64,000 bases of DNA from Myxococcota bacterium (GTDB lineage Bacteria; Myxococcota_A; UBA9160; JAFDDA01), in NCBI GenBank assembly GCA_965228475.1, contig OZ245817.1:4480001-4544000 (forward strand). Direction: 5' to 3'. The position numbers and the translations under genes were made by a program. Below are positions 1 through 48,189 of this stretch, piece after piece. The notes beneath the pieces are model-generated. The model worked only from the letters and a program-made list of their open reading frames with translations, did not search any database and was not told where the DNA came from. Positions within the stretch are counted from its first letter, which is position 1. The number at the start of each line of letters is the position of its first letter.

Positions 1-1315
1 GGTACCAGCGGATGGCCGGCTGGCCCCAGTGCTCCCACAGGTCGTGGACCTGATCGGGCGGCACGAGCCGGTCCGCCGTCCCGCCGAAGATGGCCCGGTG
101 CTCGTGGGGCACCCGACATTCGAGATCGAGCGGCGACACCACGCGCAGGACATCGTTCACGTGCTCCTGGAAGAGGCCCCCGTGCTCGATGGAGAGCAGC
201 TCGAGCGGCGCACCGTGGCGCCACATGAGACGCGAGAGGTCGGTCGCGGGAATTCCCGCGATCACGCAGGCGAGGTCGGCGTCGAGGGTCGAGAGCAGCG
301 AGGCGTTGTAGCCGCCGAGCGAGAGCCCGAGCGTGCCGATGCGCGTCGCGCCCTCGGCGCGCAGCCAGGAGAGCATCCGGCGGATGTCCCACATCGCCTG
401 GGCCTCGGCGTGGACGCCGTTGAACACGTCGCCGTCGAGGTAGCCGTCGCCGCTGCGGCGGCCGATCTTGCGCGGCCCGTGGATCGGGAGCACGGGCATC
501 AGCACGTTCAGATCGTGCTTCTGCCAGATGCGCCGGAAGGCGCCGATGTCGGTGAACGGCCAGCCCATCTGATAGCCGTGCACGCAGACGAGCCAGGGTT
601 TCTCCGGCGAACTCGCCCGCAGGATGCGGCCGTAGGCCGTGCGGTTCGGCGCGTAGCCGAGCCAGCGCTCGCGGCCGGGCTCGCCTTCCACCGGCTCGTA
701 CCCGCTCTCGAAGCGGAGCTCCTCGAAATCGACGCCGATGGCGCGGCGCTGCCGGAGCGAAACGTCTTCGAGCGGCGGCGGCGTCCGGTGGTAGTCGATC
801 GGCTTCTCGAGCCAGCCCTGGCTCTCGAAGAACTCGCTGCCCTCTTCGATCTCGGCCTGGATTCGTTCGCGCTCGAGCCCCCAGGGCGAACTGCGCGAGA
901 GGTTCATCGTCGAGAGCAGGACCTCGTCGACGGCGACCTGCGCCGCGACGCTCAGGGTGAGCGGCGGCGGCGGCACGCCGGGGAGATGCGGTTCCTGGCG
1001 AATGGCGGCGATGCCCGCCGCGATGAAGGAGGCGGCCGAGAAGCTCGCGAGCACGGCGCCGATCCCGACGCCCACGGTGAAGAACGTCGGCAGCGCGAAC
1101 AGCGTCCCGACCGCGGCGCCGAGGCCTGCGAACTGGGTGATGCGGTCGTCACCCGGCCAGAGCAGGAGCGAAACCCCGGACCCGAGCAGCAGCACACCGG
1201 GGACGAGGGCGAGCACGAAGCCGACGACGCCGAAGCTTCCGGCGCACCACAGCCAGGCGAGGCCCGCCAGGGCGGGGATGATGGCCTCGCGGGGCCAGCG
1301 CGGCTGCTCGTACAT
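1..1315 (-). CDS. Alpha/beta hydrolase with N-terminal membrane segments (ABHD18/DUF2048-like); 3' end runs off the window
   Basis: Not in the ORF track. Manual minus-strand translation from ATG 1315: MYEQPRWPREAIIPALAGLAWLW (hydrophobic), VCVHGYQMG, nucleophile motif GLSLGG, GTADRLVP; open to base 1. Confidence 0.8.
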   Translation of the reverse strand, partial: MYEQPRWPREAIIPALAGLAWLWCAGSFGVVGFVLALVPGVLLLGSGVSLLLWPGDDRITQFAGLGAAVGTLFALPTFFTVGVGIGAVLASFSAASFIAAGIAAIRQEPHLPGVPPPPLTLSVAAQVAVDEVLLSTMNLSRSSPWGLERERIQAEIEEGSEFFESQGWLEKPIDYHRTPPPLEDVSLRQRRAIGVDFEELRFESGYEPVEGEPGRERWLGYAPNRTAYGRILRASSPEKPWLVCVHGYQMGWPFTDIGAFRRIWQKHDLNVLMPVLPIHGPRKIGRRSGDGYLDGDVFNGVHAEAQAMWDIRRMLSWLRAEGATRIGTLGLSLGGYNASLLSTLDADLACVIAGIPATDLSRLMWRHGAPLELLSIEHGGLFQEHVNDVLRVVSPLDLECRVPHEHRAIFGGTADRLVPPDQVHDLWEHWGQPAIRWY

Positions 1316-1371
1316 GAAGACTCCCTTCCCTCGACCCGGACGTTACCTTCCCGGGCCGGGAGGTGGCAAAG

Positions 1372-43271: not shown

Positions 43272-43961
43272 CTAGGGCTCGCGCGTCATGCGCTTCTCGA
43301 TCTCCGCGATGTCCTCGTCGCTCCCGTCCCGGAACTCGGCGACGTCGCCCCAGCGGTCGGGCATCGCGACTTCGAGCTTCTCGAAGAAGTTCTCGAGGAA
43401 GCGGTAGGTCAGTCCCCAGACGATGTGCCGGCCCGGCTCGCCGACCAGGATGCCGGGAAAGCGCAGCCCGCGAATCCCGTAGTGGGTGCGCCGTTCCGGA
43501 TCGAGCAGGTCTTCGATGGGGAACCAGAACGCCTCGGCCACCTCGTGGTTCGGCTCGAGCGGCGCCGGGTCGCGGACGGCGTAGACGTAGGCCGAGATCA
43601 CCATCGGGATCTCCCGCCCGGCGTGGCGGCCGCGCAGGTCGTCGAGCTGGCCGAGGAGTTCGGCGCCGGCCAGGGTGACCGAAACCTCTTCGAGCGTCTC
43701 GCGCTCGGCGGCGTGGCGCGGGCCTTCGTCGCTCTCCTCGACGCGCCCTCCCGGGAAGGCCATGTGCCCGGACCACGGGTCGCCCGCGAACTCGGCGCGC
43801 TCGATGAACAGCACGTCGAGGCCGGGCCCGTCCCCGCCGGCCGGCCGCAGCACCATCGCCACGGCGGCGCGCCGCTTTCGCTGCCCGTCTTCGGTCTCGC
43901 CGGATTCGAGCTGCGCCGGATGCTTCGCGAGGGCCCGGCCGATCGACTCGAAGTCCTTCAC
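43272..43961 (-). CDS. CoA pyrophosphatase (Nudix, NudL-like)
   Basis: WSGHMAFPGG, AAERETLEE Nudix box, IVWGLT. Confidence 0.88.
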   Translation of the reverse strand: MKDFESIGRALAKHPAQLESGETEDGQRKRRAAVAMVLRPAGGDGPGLDVLFIERAEFAGDPWSGHMAFPGGRVEESDEGPRHAAERETLEEVSVTLAGAELLGQLDDLRGRHAGREIPMVISAYVYAVRDPAPLEPNHEVAEAFWFPIEDLLDPERRTHYGIRGLRFPGILVGEPGRHIVWGLTYRFLENFFEKLEVAMPDRWGDVAEFRDGSDEDIAEIEKRMTREP

Positions 43962-44001
43962 GCGAACCCTCGGGATCCGCTCTCGACCGATTCGAAACCC
44001 C

Positions 44002-45525
44002 TCACCCCGCGCAATCGAGCTCGACGTGGACGATGCGTTCTTCGGGGGCGTCCCCCGAGCCCTCGCGCCGCTGGCCGAGGTAGAAGCTGCGGGCGTCGGG
44101 CACGAGGCTGATGCCGGTGGGCGCACCCCAGGCGGCGGTCTCCCCGAGATCGACGCGCTGGCCGCCGCCCTGGGTCGGCCCCCAGACGACTTCGGTCTCC
44201 TGGAAGAGGCCAGCGTCGTCCGCCAGGGCGCGTGCGTAGACCGGCGCGACGGCGAAGCTCACGGCGTCGGGCAGCAGACCCGAAGCGCTCGCCCGCCGGG
44301 CACTCGCCGCCACGTACCAGCCGCCGTCGGTGTTGAAGGATGCCCCGCCGATTCCGGCGACGCTCTCGCCGAGCGCGAGCGCGGATTCCGTCGCCGGGTC
44401 GACGGCATCGATCCGCGCGGGCCCGAGCGGATTCCCCCGAGCGAACACCAGGGCGCGCGCGTCGGGCGACCACGCCAACGGCGCCAGCCAGTCCGCCCCG
44501 CCCTGGGCGAGCGTTCCGACGCCGCCGAGCTGGAGCGAACCGTGGCCCGAGACGAGGCCGCCGGACACCGCCCGGTAGCGTCCGCCCTCGCCCCGCGACC
44601 ACGCGAGCGTGTTCGGGGAGGGCCCGAAGAGCGCCCCTTCGTCGGGGCCGGGCTCGTAGGTGATCCGGCGCGACTTCACGCCGCGGAGCGCCGCCGAGGT
44701 GTTCAAGAGATGGAGTTCGGTGTTTCCCGGGCGGCGCCAGCTCACGTGACGGTCCGTGTCGAAGGCGACCGAGGCGCCGCCCCGGCTCGGCGCGGGCCGC
44801 CGGTTGTTGCCGGGCTCGCCGCAGGTGAGGCAGGCGTGCTCGCCCGAAGCGAGCGTCATCCGATGGATCTGCCGCCGGCCTTCGGGGCCCGGGGCATCGT
44901 AGAAGAGATGGTTCCCCTCGGCGTCGAGGCGCGGGTGTGCCCCGGTCTCGTGGACGACCGCAACGCGGCTCGCACGCGGCGAACACTCGGGCAGGGGCAC
45001 CGTGTCGATCGTCGCGTCGTGGTCGAACACGGCCCGTCGGTTCGCGTCCGTCCGCGTGGGTTCCTCGGCACCGAGGGACGCGGAGAGCGCCGAGGCCGAA
45101 AGGAGTACGAGCCCGCCGCCCAGGACCGCGAGCAGCACGGCGCCGACCTGGGCGCCGAGGCCGCCCACGGGAACCTGCCGGCGGGCGGCCCAGGCGAAGG
45201 CCGCGGCCAGGAGCAGGAACACGAGGAGGAAGGAAGCGACCGGACTCGGCGGAAGCTGCAGCAGCGCGAGCGCGAGGGCGGGCCATGCCACGAGCCCCGC
45301 GCTGGCGGCGCGGGCGAAGCGCGCACCGCGGTCCGGCTCGTCCTGGGGGCGGCGGTCGAGCAGGTGCGCGACCAGCAGCACGACCAGCCCCCCGGCCAGC
45401 GCGCCGAGCCGCACCCACAGACGCGCCGGTTCGTCCGGGTGTTGCGAGACGAGGCTGGCGACCGCCAGGGCACCCAACGCACCGGGGCCCAGACCCGAAA
45501 AGAAACACCAAGCTCGCCAGAACAC
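44002..45525 (-). CDS. Membrane-anchored protein with TolB/PD40-like beta-propeller
   Basis: About five N-terminal TM segments; CLTC; WSPDARALVF-type repeats. Confidence 0.65.
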   Translation of the reverse strand: MFWRAWCFFSGLGPGALGALAVASLVSQHPDEPARLWVRLGALAGGLVVLLVAHLLDRRPQDEPDRGARFARAASAGLVAWPALALALLQLPPSPVASFLLVFLLLAAAFAWAARRQVPVGGLGAQVGAVLLAVLGGGLVLLSASALSASLGAEEPTRTDANRRAVFDHDATIDTVPLPECSPRASRVAVVHETGAHPRLDAEGNHLFYDAPGPEGRRQIHRMTLASGEHACLTCGEPGNNRRPAPSRGGASVAFDTDRHVSWRRPGNTELHLLNTSAALRGVKSRRITYEPGPDEGALFGPSPNTLAWSRGEGGRYRAVSGGLVSGHGSLQLGGVGTLAQGGADWLAPLAWSPDARALVFARGNPLGPARIDAVDPATESALALGESVAGIGGASFNTDGGWYVAASARRASASGLLPDAVSFAVAPVYARALADDAGLFQETEVVWGPTQGGGQRVDLGETAAWGAPTGISLVPDARSFYLGQRREGSGDAPEERIVHVELDCAG

Positions 45526-45584
45526 ACCACCCCCTCGCCGGATGCGAATGTTACCACCCCCGCCGCGCGCTACCGTCGCGCGCG

Positions 45585-46805
45585 ATGCCCCTCCCCCCCG
45601 CCACCTCGCCGGCCGACGCCGCGCGCCTGATCGCCCTGGCCCGGAAGGACCGCGCGGCGGCCTCCGAAGCGCTCCTGGGCCTCCCGGTGGACGATCAGGT
45701 GGCCCTGGTCTGCCAGTCCCCGCTGGGCGAGCGGGCGGGGCTGCTCTCCCTGGTGCCGAAGCCCGAGGAGGTCATCCCGCGCATCCCCGAAGCCGAGCTC
45801 TGCTTCATCGTGAAGGCCGCGGGGCCGAGCCACGCCGGCTGGATCGTCGAACACGCGAGCCCGGAGCAGCTCGTCGCCTGCGTCGACCTCGATGGCTGGG
45901 ACGGTGCCCGGTTCGCGCCGGGGCGTTTCCGCGATTGGTGGCTCGCCGCCGCCGACGCCGGCCCGGAGACCCTGCTCCGCTGGCACGGGAGCCTCGACCC
46001 CGAGCTCCTCGTGCTCGAACTCCAGGGCCGCATCGAAGTGACCCAGAAGCCCGACGACGCCACCGAGCGGGAAGGCTGGGCACCGCCGCCCGGATCCCAG
46101 ACCCTCGACGGGGACTTCCACTACCGCCCGCTCCGCGAAGGCGACGACCTCGCCGAGCTCACGATGCTCCTGAAGTGCCTCTACGAAGCGAACTACGCGG
46201 ACTACTTCCGCGTGATGCAGGGCCCGCGTCACGAGCTCCCGATCGAGACCGAGGAGTGGGCCCTTCGCTGGCGGACGGGCCGGCTCGAAGACCTCGGCTT
46301 CCCGTCGCGCGAAGACGCCGCGGCGCTCTTCGCGAGAATCGAGCCCGAGGAGCGCGGCGAACTCCACGACGATGCCGCCGTGCTCGACGTGGCCGGCTTC
46401 CGGTTGCCCGTCTGGTTCCCGAAGGTCCCGATCGCCGTCGATGCGGAACACGCCGTGCTCGCGGCCGCCGCGCGGCTCCCGGAATCGCTGCGCGAAGGCT
46501 TCCTGTACCGCCTGATGGCCGTCGCGAACAAAGTGGCCGTGGCCTACGGCCTGCCGCTCTCGGACGTCGAATCCGTCCCCGCGGCGATGGACGAAGCCGT
46601 GCGCATGACGAGCCGCGGGCTCGAGGAGATCGCGCGCGCGAACGGCGTGGCGACCGAGGAGGTCCTGCGCAGGACGTCGCTCGAGCGGCTCTTCCGCGTG
46701 GGTGCCTCGTTCCATCCCGAGAAGGCCGAACGCGTGCTCGAACTCGGAGAAGCTCCCCTCGAAGAGAAGCCCGGAGCCGACGACGCGGCCGAAGCGGAGA
46801 GCTGA
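45585..46805 (+). CDS. DUF6178-like protein
   Basis: HASPEQLVACVDLDGW, LDPELLVL, EEWALRWRTGRLEDLGFP, LFRVG. Confidence 0.75.
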   Translation: MPLPPATSPADAARLIALARKDRAAASEALLGLPVDDQVALVCQSPLGERAGLLSLVPKPEEVIPRIPEAELCFIVKAAGPSHAGWIVEHASPEQLVACVDLDGWDGARFAPGRFRDWWLAAADAGPETLLRWHGSLDPELLVLELQGRIEVTQKPDDATEREGWAPPPGSQTLDGDFHYRPLREGDDLAELTMLLKCLYEANYADYFRVMQGPRHELPIETEEWALRWRTGRLEDLGFPSREDAAALFARIEPEERGELHDDAAVLDVAGFRLPVWFPKVPIAVDAEHAVLAAAARLPESLREGFLYRLMAVANKVAVAYGLPLSDVESVPAAMDEAVRMTSRGLEEIARANGVATEEVLRRTSLERLFRVGASFHPEKAERVLELGEAPLEEKPGADDAAEAES

Positions 46806-46836
46806 CCGGGCAACGAGAACCGATGCCCGAAACGAA

Positions 46837-46869
46837 GAACGCCCGCGAACCGACGGCTCGCGGGCGTTC
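46837..46869 (-). terminator. Intrinsic terminator of the histone-fold gene (possibly bidirectional)
   Basis: GAACGCCCGCGA / TCGCGGGCGTTC 12-bp stem followed on the minus strand by TTCGTTTC. Confidence 0.75.
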
Positions 46870-46889
46870 CAGACTCTCGAGAGCGGCGA

Positions 46890-47108
46890 CTAGATGTCGA
46901 CGGCCTTGATGGTCTTGCGCTTGTTGCCGATCGCGCGCGCCTCGGCACCCTTGATGATGTCGCGGACGTGCGCGTCGAGCGCAGCGTAGAACTCACTGCT
47001 CACGTTGCACTTCTTGGTCGCGCCCTTGGTGCGCGACTTCGAGATGATGAGCTCCGCCGGCTTGCTGCTGCGGCGACGCGTTGCCTTCTTCTTCTTACGA
47101 GCTGCCAT
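46890..47108 (-). CDS. Prokaryotic histone-fold protein with basic N-terminal tail
   Basis: 72 aa; core ELIISKSRTK..NVSSEFYAALDAHVRDIIKGAEARAIGNKRKTIKAVDI with the RKTxxxxD L2 signature; GGAGG SD. Confidence 0.85.
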   Translation of the reverse strand: MAARKKKKATRRRSSKPAELIISKSRTKGATKKCNVSSEFYAALDAHVRDIIKGAEARAIGNKRKTIKAVDI

Positions 47109-47188
47109 GTTCCGTTTCCCTCCAACGTCGGTGCCGGTTCACGGCGACCGCGTGTTCCCCCCTCGGCTTGCCCGAGGTTCCGGGGCCG

Positions 47189-47216
47189 ATCATAAGCAAC
47201 TTTCCGTCGGGGGCAA
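47189..47216 (-). promoter_or_regulatory. sigma70-type promoter of the histone gene
   Basis: TTGCCC-N16-TATGAT on the minus strand, ~80 nt upstream of ATG. Confidence 0.6.
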
Positions 47217-47316
47217 CGGAAAAACGGCCGAAATCGGGCGCGGGAAGCCGCCTGGAGCCCGTTCTCGAAATCGCTTCCGAGACGACTCCGCCGGCCGGTT
47301 CGCTAGTTTCGCTTCC

Positions 47317-48189
47317 GTGCGGGACGTGAGCCAGGCATCGGAGCAAGCCGCGAAGCAGGCCGATTACGGCGCGGCGCGGAGCGAGTTCTTCACGCGCCCG
47401 GAACTCGACGGCGTGCGGCTCCATGCACTGCACTGGGGTGACCCGGATGGGCCGGCCATCGTGCTCGTCCACGGGGGCGGGGCCAACGGGCATTGGTGGA
47501 AGCAGCTCGCGCCCTCCCTCGCGAACGGCGCCCACGTGGTCGCGCTGGACTTTCGCGGGCACGGGGATTCGGACTTCCCGGAACGGCTCGCCGAAGGCGA
47601 CTTCCAGAGCGATCTTCATGCCTTGCTCGACCAGCTCGAAGCCCCGGACGCCGTTCTCGTGGGCCATTCCATGGGCGGAGAAGTCGTTCTACGCGTGGCC
47701 GCCGGCGGCCGTGCGACGCCCCGGGGCGTCGTCCTGCTCGATCTCGCGCGGGGCCGCAGCGACCGGGCCCGCCGCCTATTGCGGCGGGCTCTCACGATCC
47801 GTCACGCCTACCGGACGCGCGAGGAGGCCATCGAGCGCTTCCGCTTCGTCCCGCCCGCCGTCCACGTGGAGGAGGCGCTCCGGAACGAGATCGCCTCCCA
47901 CTCCGTCCACGCGGATGCCGGGGGGCGCTGGAGCTTCAAGTCCCACCGGGGCTGGATCGATGCGATCCCCTCGGACGAAGCGCGCCCGAGCGACGTGGCC
48001 TGCCCCGTGCTCTTCCTGCGCGGCGACGAGAGCGGAATCTGCAGCGAGGACGGGGCCCGCGAGCTGGTCGGGGCCCTGCCGCACGGGCGGCTCGCGACGA
48101 TCCCGCGCGCGGGGCACCACGTCCATCTCGACGCACCCGAGCCCACGGCGCGCGAGATTCGCCACTTCCTCGCCGGCCTTCCGCGCTGA
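47317..48189 (+). CDS. Alpha/beta hydrolase
   Basis: VHGGGAN, DFRGHGDS, GHSMGG, AGHHVHLD. Confidence 0.88.
   Translation: MRDVSQASEQAAKQADYGAARSEFFTRPELDGVRLHALHWGDPDGPAIVLVHGGGANGHWWKQLAPSLANGAHVVALDFRGHGDSDFPERLAEGDFQSDLHALLDQLEAPDAVLVGHSMGGEVVLRVAAGGRATPRGVVLLDLARGRSDRARRLLRRALTIRHAYRTREEAIERFRFVPPAVHVEEALRNEIASHSVHADAGGRWSFKSHRGWIDAIPSDEARPSDVACPVLFLRGDESGICSEDGARELVGALPHGRLATIPRAGHHVHLDAPEPTAREIRHFLAGLPR

Follow-up and report, generated by a model that had tools for sequence, protein, structure and literature searches.

The subject of this analysis is a small gene on the minus strand of a 64,000-nucleotide stretch of contig OZ245817.1 from a Myxococcota bacterium; the whole stretch is referred to as the window in the following. 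The gene, an open reading frame (ORF) at 46890..47108, opens with an ATG start codon, comprises 72 codons and ends with a TAG stop codon, read from the sequence at 46890..46892 (minus strand). Judged by its sequence, its product, MAARKKKKATRRRSSKPAELIISKSRTKGATKKCNVSSEFYAALDAHVRDIIKGAEARAIGNKRKTIKAVDI, is a histone. The protein consists of a basic N-terminal tail (codons 1-19, 47052..47108, minus strand; MAARKKKKATRRRSSKPAE) with nine Lys/Arg residues and one Glu, and of a histone fold with a truncated helix alpha3 (codons 20-72, 46893..47051, minus strand) that was delimited by profile comparison with the PDB, AlphaFold modeling, Foldseek and the invariant columns of an alignment. An earlier note, prepared from the DNA alone, had described the gene as a stand-alone bacterial histone of 72 residues with nine Lys/Arg residues among the first 16. 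The ORF with its ATG start is found exactly as described, and counting on the translated sequence yields the same nine basic residues.

The chosen ATG is the first start codon past the upstream in-frame stop. The next in-frame ATG, GTG or TTG is the GTG at codon 36, which is located within the fold, and a start at this position would delete helix 1. The tail can therefore not be escaped by initiation further downstream, and the concern that the true start might lie behind the tail is met by the finding that no usable start codon exists there. The histone gene is flanked by a DUF6178 gene in convergent orientation, which ends at 46805, and by an alpha/beta-hydrolase gene in divergent orientation; it is thus monocistronic. 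It is present in a single copy in the 5.0-Mb, one-contig genome. GC content amounts to about 64% in the region of the gene vs. about 72% around it, a decrease caused by Lys codons and intergenic DNA, and the local GC profile of the region gives no sign of a genomic island.

Histone fold and class assignment

The decisive evidence for the histone fold stems from a family profile of 30 sequences (A2) that was searched against the PDB. The profile retrieves HTkC (9f2c) with an E-value of 4.3e-13 and HLp (9qt0) with 3.8e-11, followed by HBb/Bd0055 (8cmp, 1.3e-8; 8fvx, 5e-8), HmvA (0.0098) and NF-YB chains with E-values above 0.2. An AlphaFold model computed from 79 sequences has a predicted local distance difference test (pLDDT) score of 82.4 overall and of 89-96 in the core, while residues 1-20 score between 51 and 61, in agreement with the disordered tail that had been claimed. 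The model comprises helix alpha1 (residues 24-30), a helix alpha2 of 24 residues (38-61) and a helix alpha3 that consists of a single turn of three residues (69-71). When this model is submitted to Foldseek, the top nine rows contain only chains of HTkC, HBb and HLp (E-values 3e-3 to 5e-2, probability 1.00, template modeling (TM) score to target 0.74-0.84, root-mean-square deviation (rmsd) 1.7-2.5), and eukaryotic core histones come after them. Profile, AlphaFold model and Foldseek thus all support the fold of a stand-alone bacterial histone, with alpha3-truncated histones as the best matches.

According to Schwab et al. (2024; PMC11390915), alpha3-truncated histones possess an alpha3 of three to four residues and an alpha2 that is four to five residues shorter than in nucleosomal histones. 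The one-turn alpha3 and the 24-residue alpha2 of the AlphaFold model place the window histone in this group. A nucleosomal histone of the HMf type is indicated neither by the one-turn alpha3 nor by comparison with PF00808 (CBFD_NFYB_HMF), to which the protein has no match even at E-values up to 10. The RKTxxxxD signature on which the original identification relied is present as the RxTxxxxD motif R64-K65-T66...D71, and it is conserved.

Within the alpha3-truncated histones, face-to-face (FtF) tetramers are described as retaining an Arg and an Asn at the dimer-dimer interface, while "bacterial dimers" are described as lacking both; the Arg resides six and the Asn two positions before the motif Arg, and they appear as R48 and N52 in the published sequence logo (Schwab et al., 2024; PMC11390915). 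For HLp, the tetramer network has been assigned to R49, N53 and R55 and the RD clamp to R55-D62 (Hu et al., 2025; PMC12701072), and for HTkC the exchange R45A is reported to convert the tetramer into a dimer (bioRxiv 10.64898/2025.12.06.692711). In a profile alignment, R49, N53, R55 and D62 of HLp correspond to R58, N62, R64 and D71 of the window histone, and R45 of HTkC likewise corresponds to R58. N62, R64, T66 and D71 are invariant among the 79 aligned sequences, and R58 is conserved in at least 90% of them. The residues that carry most of the DNA contacts in HLp, i.e., S14, K15, K17, K21, K54 and R59 (Hu et al., 2025; PMC12701072), align with S25, R26, K28, K32, K63 and K68, all six of which are identical or like-charged. 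The closest sequence relatives in the PDB are FtF structures, ahead of dimeric and nucleosomal histones. As the interface Arg and Asn are both present and HBb ranks below both FtF structures, the protein does not group with the bacterial dimers.

Comparison with the individual structures specifies this picture. HLp from Leptospira perolatii (PDB 9QT0-9QT2) has the same one-turn alpha3, with the chain ending one residue past the clamp Asp, the same R/N/R tetramer residues, the RD clamp and matching DNA-contact positions; in Foldseek it reaches a TM score to target of 0.84 and an rmsd of 1.7 over 56 residues at about 25% identity. The two proteins differ at the N-terminus, where the first six to seven residues of HLp are merely unresolved in the crystals (Hu et al., 2025; PMC12701072), whereas the window histone possesses a Lys/Arg tail of 17-19 residues with a MAARKKK start. 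They also differ in genomic background, as Leptospira species are described as lacking HU and containing one histone (Hu et al., 2025; PMC12701072), whereas the source genome of the window contains two HU/IHF and three histone-fold genes, and in their conserved neighbors, which are SMC, MAP and DUF350 for HLp and alpha/beta hydrolase, DUF6178 and NUDIX here. The Thermococcus kodakarensis protein HTkC (PDB 9F2C) is the best profile match and the top Foldseek row, with 33-34% identity, and its R45, aligned with R58, is the residue reported as needed for the tetramer (bioRxiv 10.64898/2025.12.06.692711). Unlike the bacterial window histone, it is an archaeal protein that coexists with nucleosomal histones; it lacks a basic tail, its 59-residue chain aligning from residue 4, and has Glu at the position of N62. 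HBb/Bd0055 from Bdellovibrio bacteriovorus (8CMP, 8FVX) shares the alpha3-truncated fold and the RKT...D motif (Foldseek TM score to target 0.75-0.79), but is a tail-less, DNA-bending dimer that lacks the interface Arg and Asn according to Schwab et al. (2024; PMC11390915).

At the level of sequence, the histone combines all features by which the FtF class is recognized, and a ring tetramer would follow by analogy with HLp and HTkC. The gene is a further representative of this already described class, in a phylum from which the class has been reported before.

The N-terminal tail

Tails were surveyed in the 80 best of 399 species genomes with a relative. Eleven of the 80 fetched loci (L011, L018, L024, L040, L041, L059, L062, L065, L069, L070 and L077), labeled Planctomycetota, Eisenbacteria, Latescibacterota, Krumholzibacteriia or Methylomirabilis, were dropped because their C-terminal motif fell outside the search expression, and L055 was dropped because it offered no ATG start, so that 68 loci and the window, i.e., 69 genes, were analyzed. 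In 67 of these genes, an SD-like (Shine-Dalgarno-like) site is situated ahead of the ATG.

The tail, defined as the part ahead of LIISK, is found in all 69 genes. It comprises 9-20 residues (median 17), of which a median of seven are Lys/Arg (44% of all residues in the tails), and its net charge averages +6.1. Its N-terminus, MAA[R/K]KKK, is near-invariant, with M1 in 69, A2 in 68, A3 in 65, R/K4 in 66 and K6 in 67 of the 69 genes. The junction between tail and core follows the pattern KP[A/V][E/D], in which Lys and Pro each occur in 55/69 genes and the acidic residue, either Glu or Asp, in 69/69. Between these two conserved ends, the tails differ in both length and sequence. Ser and Thr are completely missing from 34 of the 69 tails, which argues against a conserved phospho-switch, one of the possibilities that the earlier note had entertained; the tail of the window histone itself carries T10, S14 and S15. 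By count from the sequence, residues 1-19 of the window protein contribute a charge of +8 and the core +7, resulting in +15 per monomer; in a tetramer with a charge of roughly +60, about half would thus come from the tails.

The premise of the earlier note that histones with a short alpha3 are mostly tail-less turns out to be wrong for bacteria, for which Schwab et al. (2024; PMC11390915) describe positively charged tails as common among FtF histones and list Myxococcota among their sources. As in the eukaryotic core and linker histones and in the tails of Asgard histones, a disordered and strongly basic extension is attached here to a small DNA-binding fold. H3 and H4 tails, in contrast, are much longer, and the sequence of the window tail is lineage-specific. 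Lys-rich extensions also occur in some bacterial HU proteins.

Distant relatives of the histone display a range of other architectures. Seven of them (P0141, P0144, P0148, P0156, P0158, P0172 and P0192) carry tails of 30-47 residues rich in Lys, Ala and Thr with linker-histone-like repeats, and P0157 and P0186 (56 residues) are devoid of a tail. Proteins of about 120 residues with two tandem copies of the fold, that is, natural pseudodimers with two matched segments apiece, are represented by P0175, P0188, P0189, P0198, P0202, P0203, P0206-P0208 and P0216. P0212 (260 residues) has an N-terminal extension ahead of the fold doublet, and P0170 and P0171 have C-terminal extensions.

Expression signals and genomic setting

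Upstream of the histone gene, a promoter scan located a sigma-70-type promoter-like site at 47189..47216 on the minus strand, consisting of a -35 element TTGCCC (47216-47211), a spacer of 16 nt and a -10 element TATGAT (47194-47189), which is the promoter that had been proposed for the gene. It matches the consensus at nine of 12 positions and is the sole such site in 46500-47600, where shuffled sequences lead to an expectation of 0.0. Sites with at least nine of 12 matches are present upstream of 48 of the 69 orthologs vs. none of 66 control stretches. Among these 48 sites, the -35 element is TTGACT in 33, the spacer measures 16 nt in 46 and 22 have TATGAT as the -10 element; in orthologous promoters, the -10 box is followed by a stretch rich in GC, e.g., CGCGCC. 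That the histone gene has a near-consensus promoter conserved across the order is well supported. In combining a spacer of 16 nt and a discriminator rich in GC, these promoters are reminiscent of the stringently controlled rRNA promoters of Escherichia coli.

The promoter is followed by a 5' leader of about 75-80 nt (47109..47188, minus strand) that contains the hairpin CCUCGG-GCAAG-CCGAGG, immediately after it a run of G (47157-47162) and then the SD sequence GGAGG(G), which was likewise correctly proposed and is located at 47118-47123 (minus strand), 9-10 nt ahead of the ATG. The leaders of the orthologs range from about 35 to 150 nt, with a median of 91. In 42 of 69 leaders, five or more G occur in a row, as opposed to 9.1% of background stretches of 85 nt, and a hairpin usually precedes this G-run (mean z-score -1.09, z < -2 in 9/42). 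Across the orthologous loci, the order of elements is hairpin, run of 5-8 G, second hairpin and SD sequence. For a subgroup of 13 leaders, RNAalifold predicts two hairpins, and eight of 17 pairs show compensatory changes, all of them in those hairpins. Folding of the window leader alone does not stand out against shuffled sequences (z -1.33; 21/200 shuffles fold as stably), MAFFT combined with RNAalifold finds a consensus structure of 0 pairs across 41 G-run segments, and an Rfam scan of 46700-47400 gave seven matches with E-values of 0.5-9.2, all far below the gathering scores. We also considered a 5'-terminal stem formed by the G-run and the GC-rich sequence that follows the -10 box; this idea was dropped, as the four pairs of this kind predicted for the subgroup lack changes on both sides and as the GC-rich sequence may lie upstream of the transcription start. 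We take the leader element to be real, and it could serve as an mRNA stabilizer, a standby ribosome site or the target of a regulator.

Between the histone gene and the DUF6178 gene, an intrinsic-terminator-like hairpin with the adjoining UUCGUUUC occupies 46828..46870 (minus strand). Where a terminator of 12 bp had been suggested, RNAfold predicts a hairpin of 16 pairs at 46836-46870. The 81-nt stretch folds with -45.1 kcal/mol (z -5.2), a value that none of 200 shuffles attains. A simple terminator scan listed four other sites and not this one.

A word-indexed protein search returned 1206 proteins at E ≤ 0.01; most of the 120 matches listed have 69-75 residues, and 18 of them are named "histone H3/H4" by JGI. 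An exhaustive search yielded 100 clusters at 50% identity, of which 32 have E ≤ 1e-10. As for the 399 species genomes mentioned above, the best 80 are all metagenome-assembled genomes, mostly labeled Myxococcota or Deltaproteobacteria. In a sample of the phylum, the gene is present in 25 of 121 genomes, namely in the source genome, in 17 of the 18 others of its order (the genome without a match consists of 820 contigs), in all three of the sister family in the class and in only four more elsewhere. The histone core has a median identity of 77% to that of the window; at the same loci, DUF6178, hydrolase, NUDIX and amidase proteins are 45, 48, 53 and 62% identical, respectively, to their counterparts in the window. 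The histone is near-universal in its order and evolves slowly.

Gene order is conserved around the histone gene (43272-48189 of the window), with DUF6178 in convergent orientation at 61 and the hydrolase in divergent orientation at 60 of the 80 loci, NUDIX nearby in 57 and amidase in 20. At 14 loci labeled Planctomycetota, Eisenbacteria/Eiseniibacteriota, Latescibacterota, Krumholzibacteriia or Methylomirabilota, DUF6178 is never a neighbor, for which reason we take the synteny to reflect the gene order of the lineage. A functional link to the neighbors was considered and rejected: DUF6178 has no PDB relative, and the hydrolase is a generic enzyme of the alpha/beta fold. An atlas search for DUF6178 retrieved only DUF6178 clusters and a weak lead to AtcB, and nothing known of the neighboring families points to chromatin.

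Further genes for potential chromatin proteins reside in the source genome outside the window. A tail-less, HBb-like histone of 62 residues is encoded on the plus strand of the contig at 4014547-4014735 (G000:C1; 248-436 of locus L084) and matches 8fvx and 8cmp with an E-value of 1.6e-12. It has Asn and Asp at the positions of R58 and N62, and BLASTP detects no similarity between it and the window histone. When 61 genomes of the order were searched with this protein as query, 47 gave a match, and many of these matches represent a Cys-rich fused form. The source genome contains such a fusion as well (G000:C1, about 2359410-2359934, plus strand; ORF 595..1335 of locus L086, with the true start probably near 811). 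It is composed of a Cys/His-rich N-terminal domain with the patterns CxxC, CxxxxC, CxxxC and H-x5-H (C4 plus C2H2-like), an Ala/Pro/Lys linker and, at the C-terminus, a fold resembling HBb (8cmp, E 1.2e-4); Pfam recognizes only a weak zf_C2H2_13 (E 0.1). Of the 61 genomes of the order, 45 contain the Cys-rich domain; in the rows compared, it shares the strand of the match to the histone domain and lies about 100 nt upstream of it. One of the two HU/IHF genes lies on the minus strand at 2437402-2437671 (G000:C1, locus L085), with a pheT-like gene immediately upstream and a MerR-like gene coming after it, which we take to be the usual ihfA context. The architecture of a Cys-rich domain joined to a histone fold is that of the "ZZ histones" (Schwab et al., 2024; PMC11390915). 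A phrase search of that main text found no mention of several histones in one genome, and co-occurrence is treated only for IHF histones. As regards candidate modifiers, the source genome contains a single gene of the HDAC family, the family also has matches in nine of 14 control genomes, and the search of the source genome yielded no SET-domain gene; this search for chromatin modifiers is not informative.

Probable mode of action and significance

In our assessment, the window gene quite probably encodes a nucleoid-associated, alpha3-truncated FtF histone with a basic tail that would assemble into a ring tetramer and wrap DNA. The gene would be transcribed alone from its conserved, near-consensus promoter, with transcription ending at the strong hairpin. 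Two chains would form a histone handshake dimer, and, by analogy with HLp and HTkC, two dimers would close into a ring via R58, N62, R64 and the C-terminus. Around this ring, DNA would wrap via alpha1, L1 and L2 over about 60 bp, a figure adopted from HLp. The four disordered tails, each of 17-19 residues and a net charge of +8, would emerge from the ring where alpha1 begins, beside the path of the DNA, and would most likely provide additional, non-specific electrostatic grip on wrapped or neighboring DNA, through charge neutralization and perhaps by touching a second duplex. We infer from HLp and HTkC that the protein is a tetramer, that it wraps DNA, what its tail does and that it is abundant; for abundance, the promoter and leader signals are the only ground in the sequence itself.

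Several observations weigh against this interpretation. A search of the PDB with the single sequence resulted in one match only (9f2c, E 0.002). Scans with Pfam and NCBIfam recognized no family in the protein, which also explains why such small genes remain "hypothetical," as the earlier note had anticipated. A previous AlphaFold model built from 24 close sequences reached a pLDDT of 66.5 and produced no Foldseek match, and the Foldseek E-values of the 79-sequence model are modest. The Glu that HTkC has at the position of N62 indicates that this Asn is not universal in the FtF class. Finally, with two HU/IHF genes and two further histone-fold genes in the source genome, the window histone need not be the main organizer of the chromosome.

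The relation to HBb is the point at which a different mode of DNA binding has to be weighed, i.e., that of a tailed, dimeric histone of the HBb/Bd0055 type that bends DNA in an HU/IHF-like manner and does not wrap it. The family profile also matches HBb, with an E-value of 1e-8, and in Foldseek the chains of HBb reach scores equal to those of HLp and HTkC. We nevertheless consider such a dimer unlikely, as the two FtF structures are the best profile matches, as R58 and N62, which bacterial dimers lack according to Schwab et al. (2024; PMC11390915), are conserved, and as the HBb-like paralog of the same genome differs at exactly these two positions and has no BLASTP similarity to the window histone. 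Quite unlikely, in our view, is also a role of the tail as a regulated, eukaryote-like platform, with compaction switched on and off by the acetylation of Lys or the phosphorylation of Ser/Thr. Almost half of the surveyed tails offer neither Ser nor Thr, the tail middle is variable in length and sequence, and no modifying enzyme is found among the conserved neighbors; moreover, the single HDAC-family gene that could be quoted in support belongs to a family also matched in control genomes, and a SET-domain gene was not found. What speaks for regulation, apart from T10, S14 and S15 in the window tail, is that the near-invariance of MAA[R/K]KKK goes beyond what a constraint on composition alone needs.

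Schwab et al. (2024; PMC11390915) caution that not all prokaryotic histone-fold proteins organize genomes, and the source genome is already equipped with HU/IHF and two other histone-fold genes, so that one may think of a specific regulator or of a basic protein that binds RNA or ribosomes. Such a task is, however, highly improbable for a protein in which the six DNA-contact residues of HLp all have identical or like-charged counterparts and whose gene is near-universal in the order, evolves slowly and possesses a conserved near-consensus promoter. Very unlikely is also a more far-reaching proposal, according to which the lineage runs a layered, eukaryote-like chromatin based on three histone-fold proteins and AARKKK, exposed after removal of Met, is a recognized and modifiable handle. 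Its parts may be a tailed wrapper forming ring tetramers (the window gene), a tail-less HBb-like bender and the fusion of zinc finger and histone.

Bacterial histones have been recognized only between 2023 and 2025. Most bacterial representatives of the FtF class come from uncultured organisms, as pointed out by Hu et al. (2025; PMC12701072). The window gene leaves the known picture of FtF histones unchanged, and its interest lies in the detail. It constitutes a cleanly delimited example, mapped from the promoter and leader through start, tail and fold to the terminator. New details are that the tail opens with a conserved MAARKKK, that promoter and leader are conserved as well, that the gene is near-universal in the order and that a single genome combines three histone-fold genes with HU/IHF. 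The conserved tail start makes the role of the tail directly testable by deletion, and a genome in which the window histone occurs together with HU/IHF, a histone of the HBb-like type and a Cys-rich fusion represents a natural system for studying the division of work among histone types.

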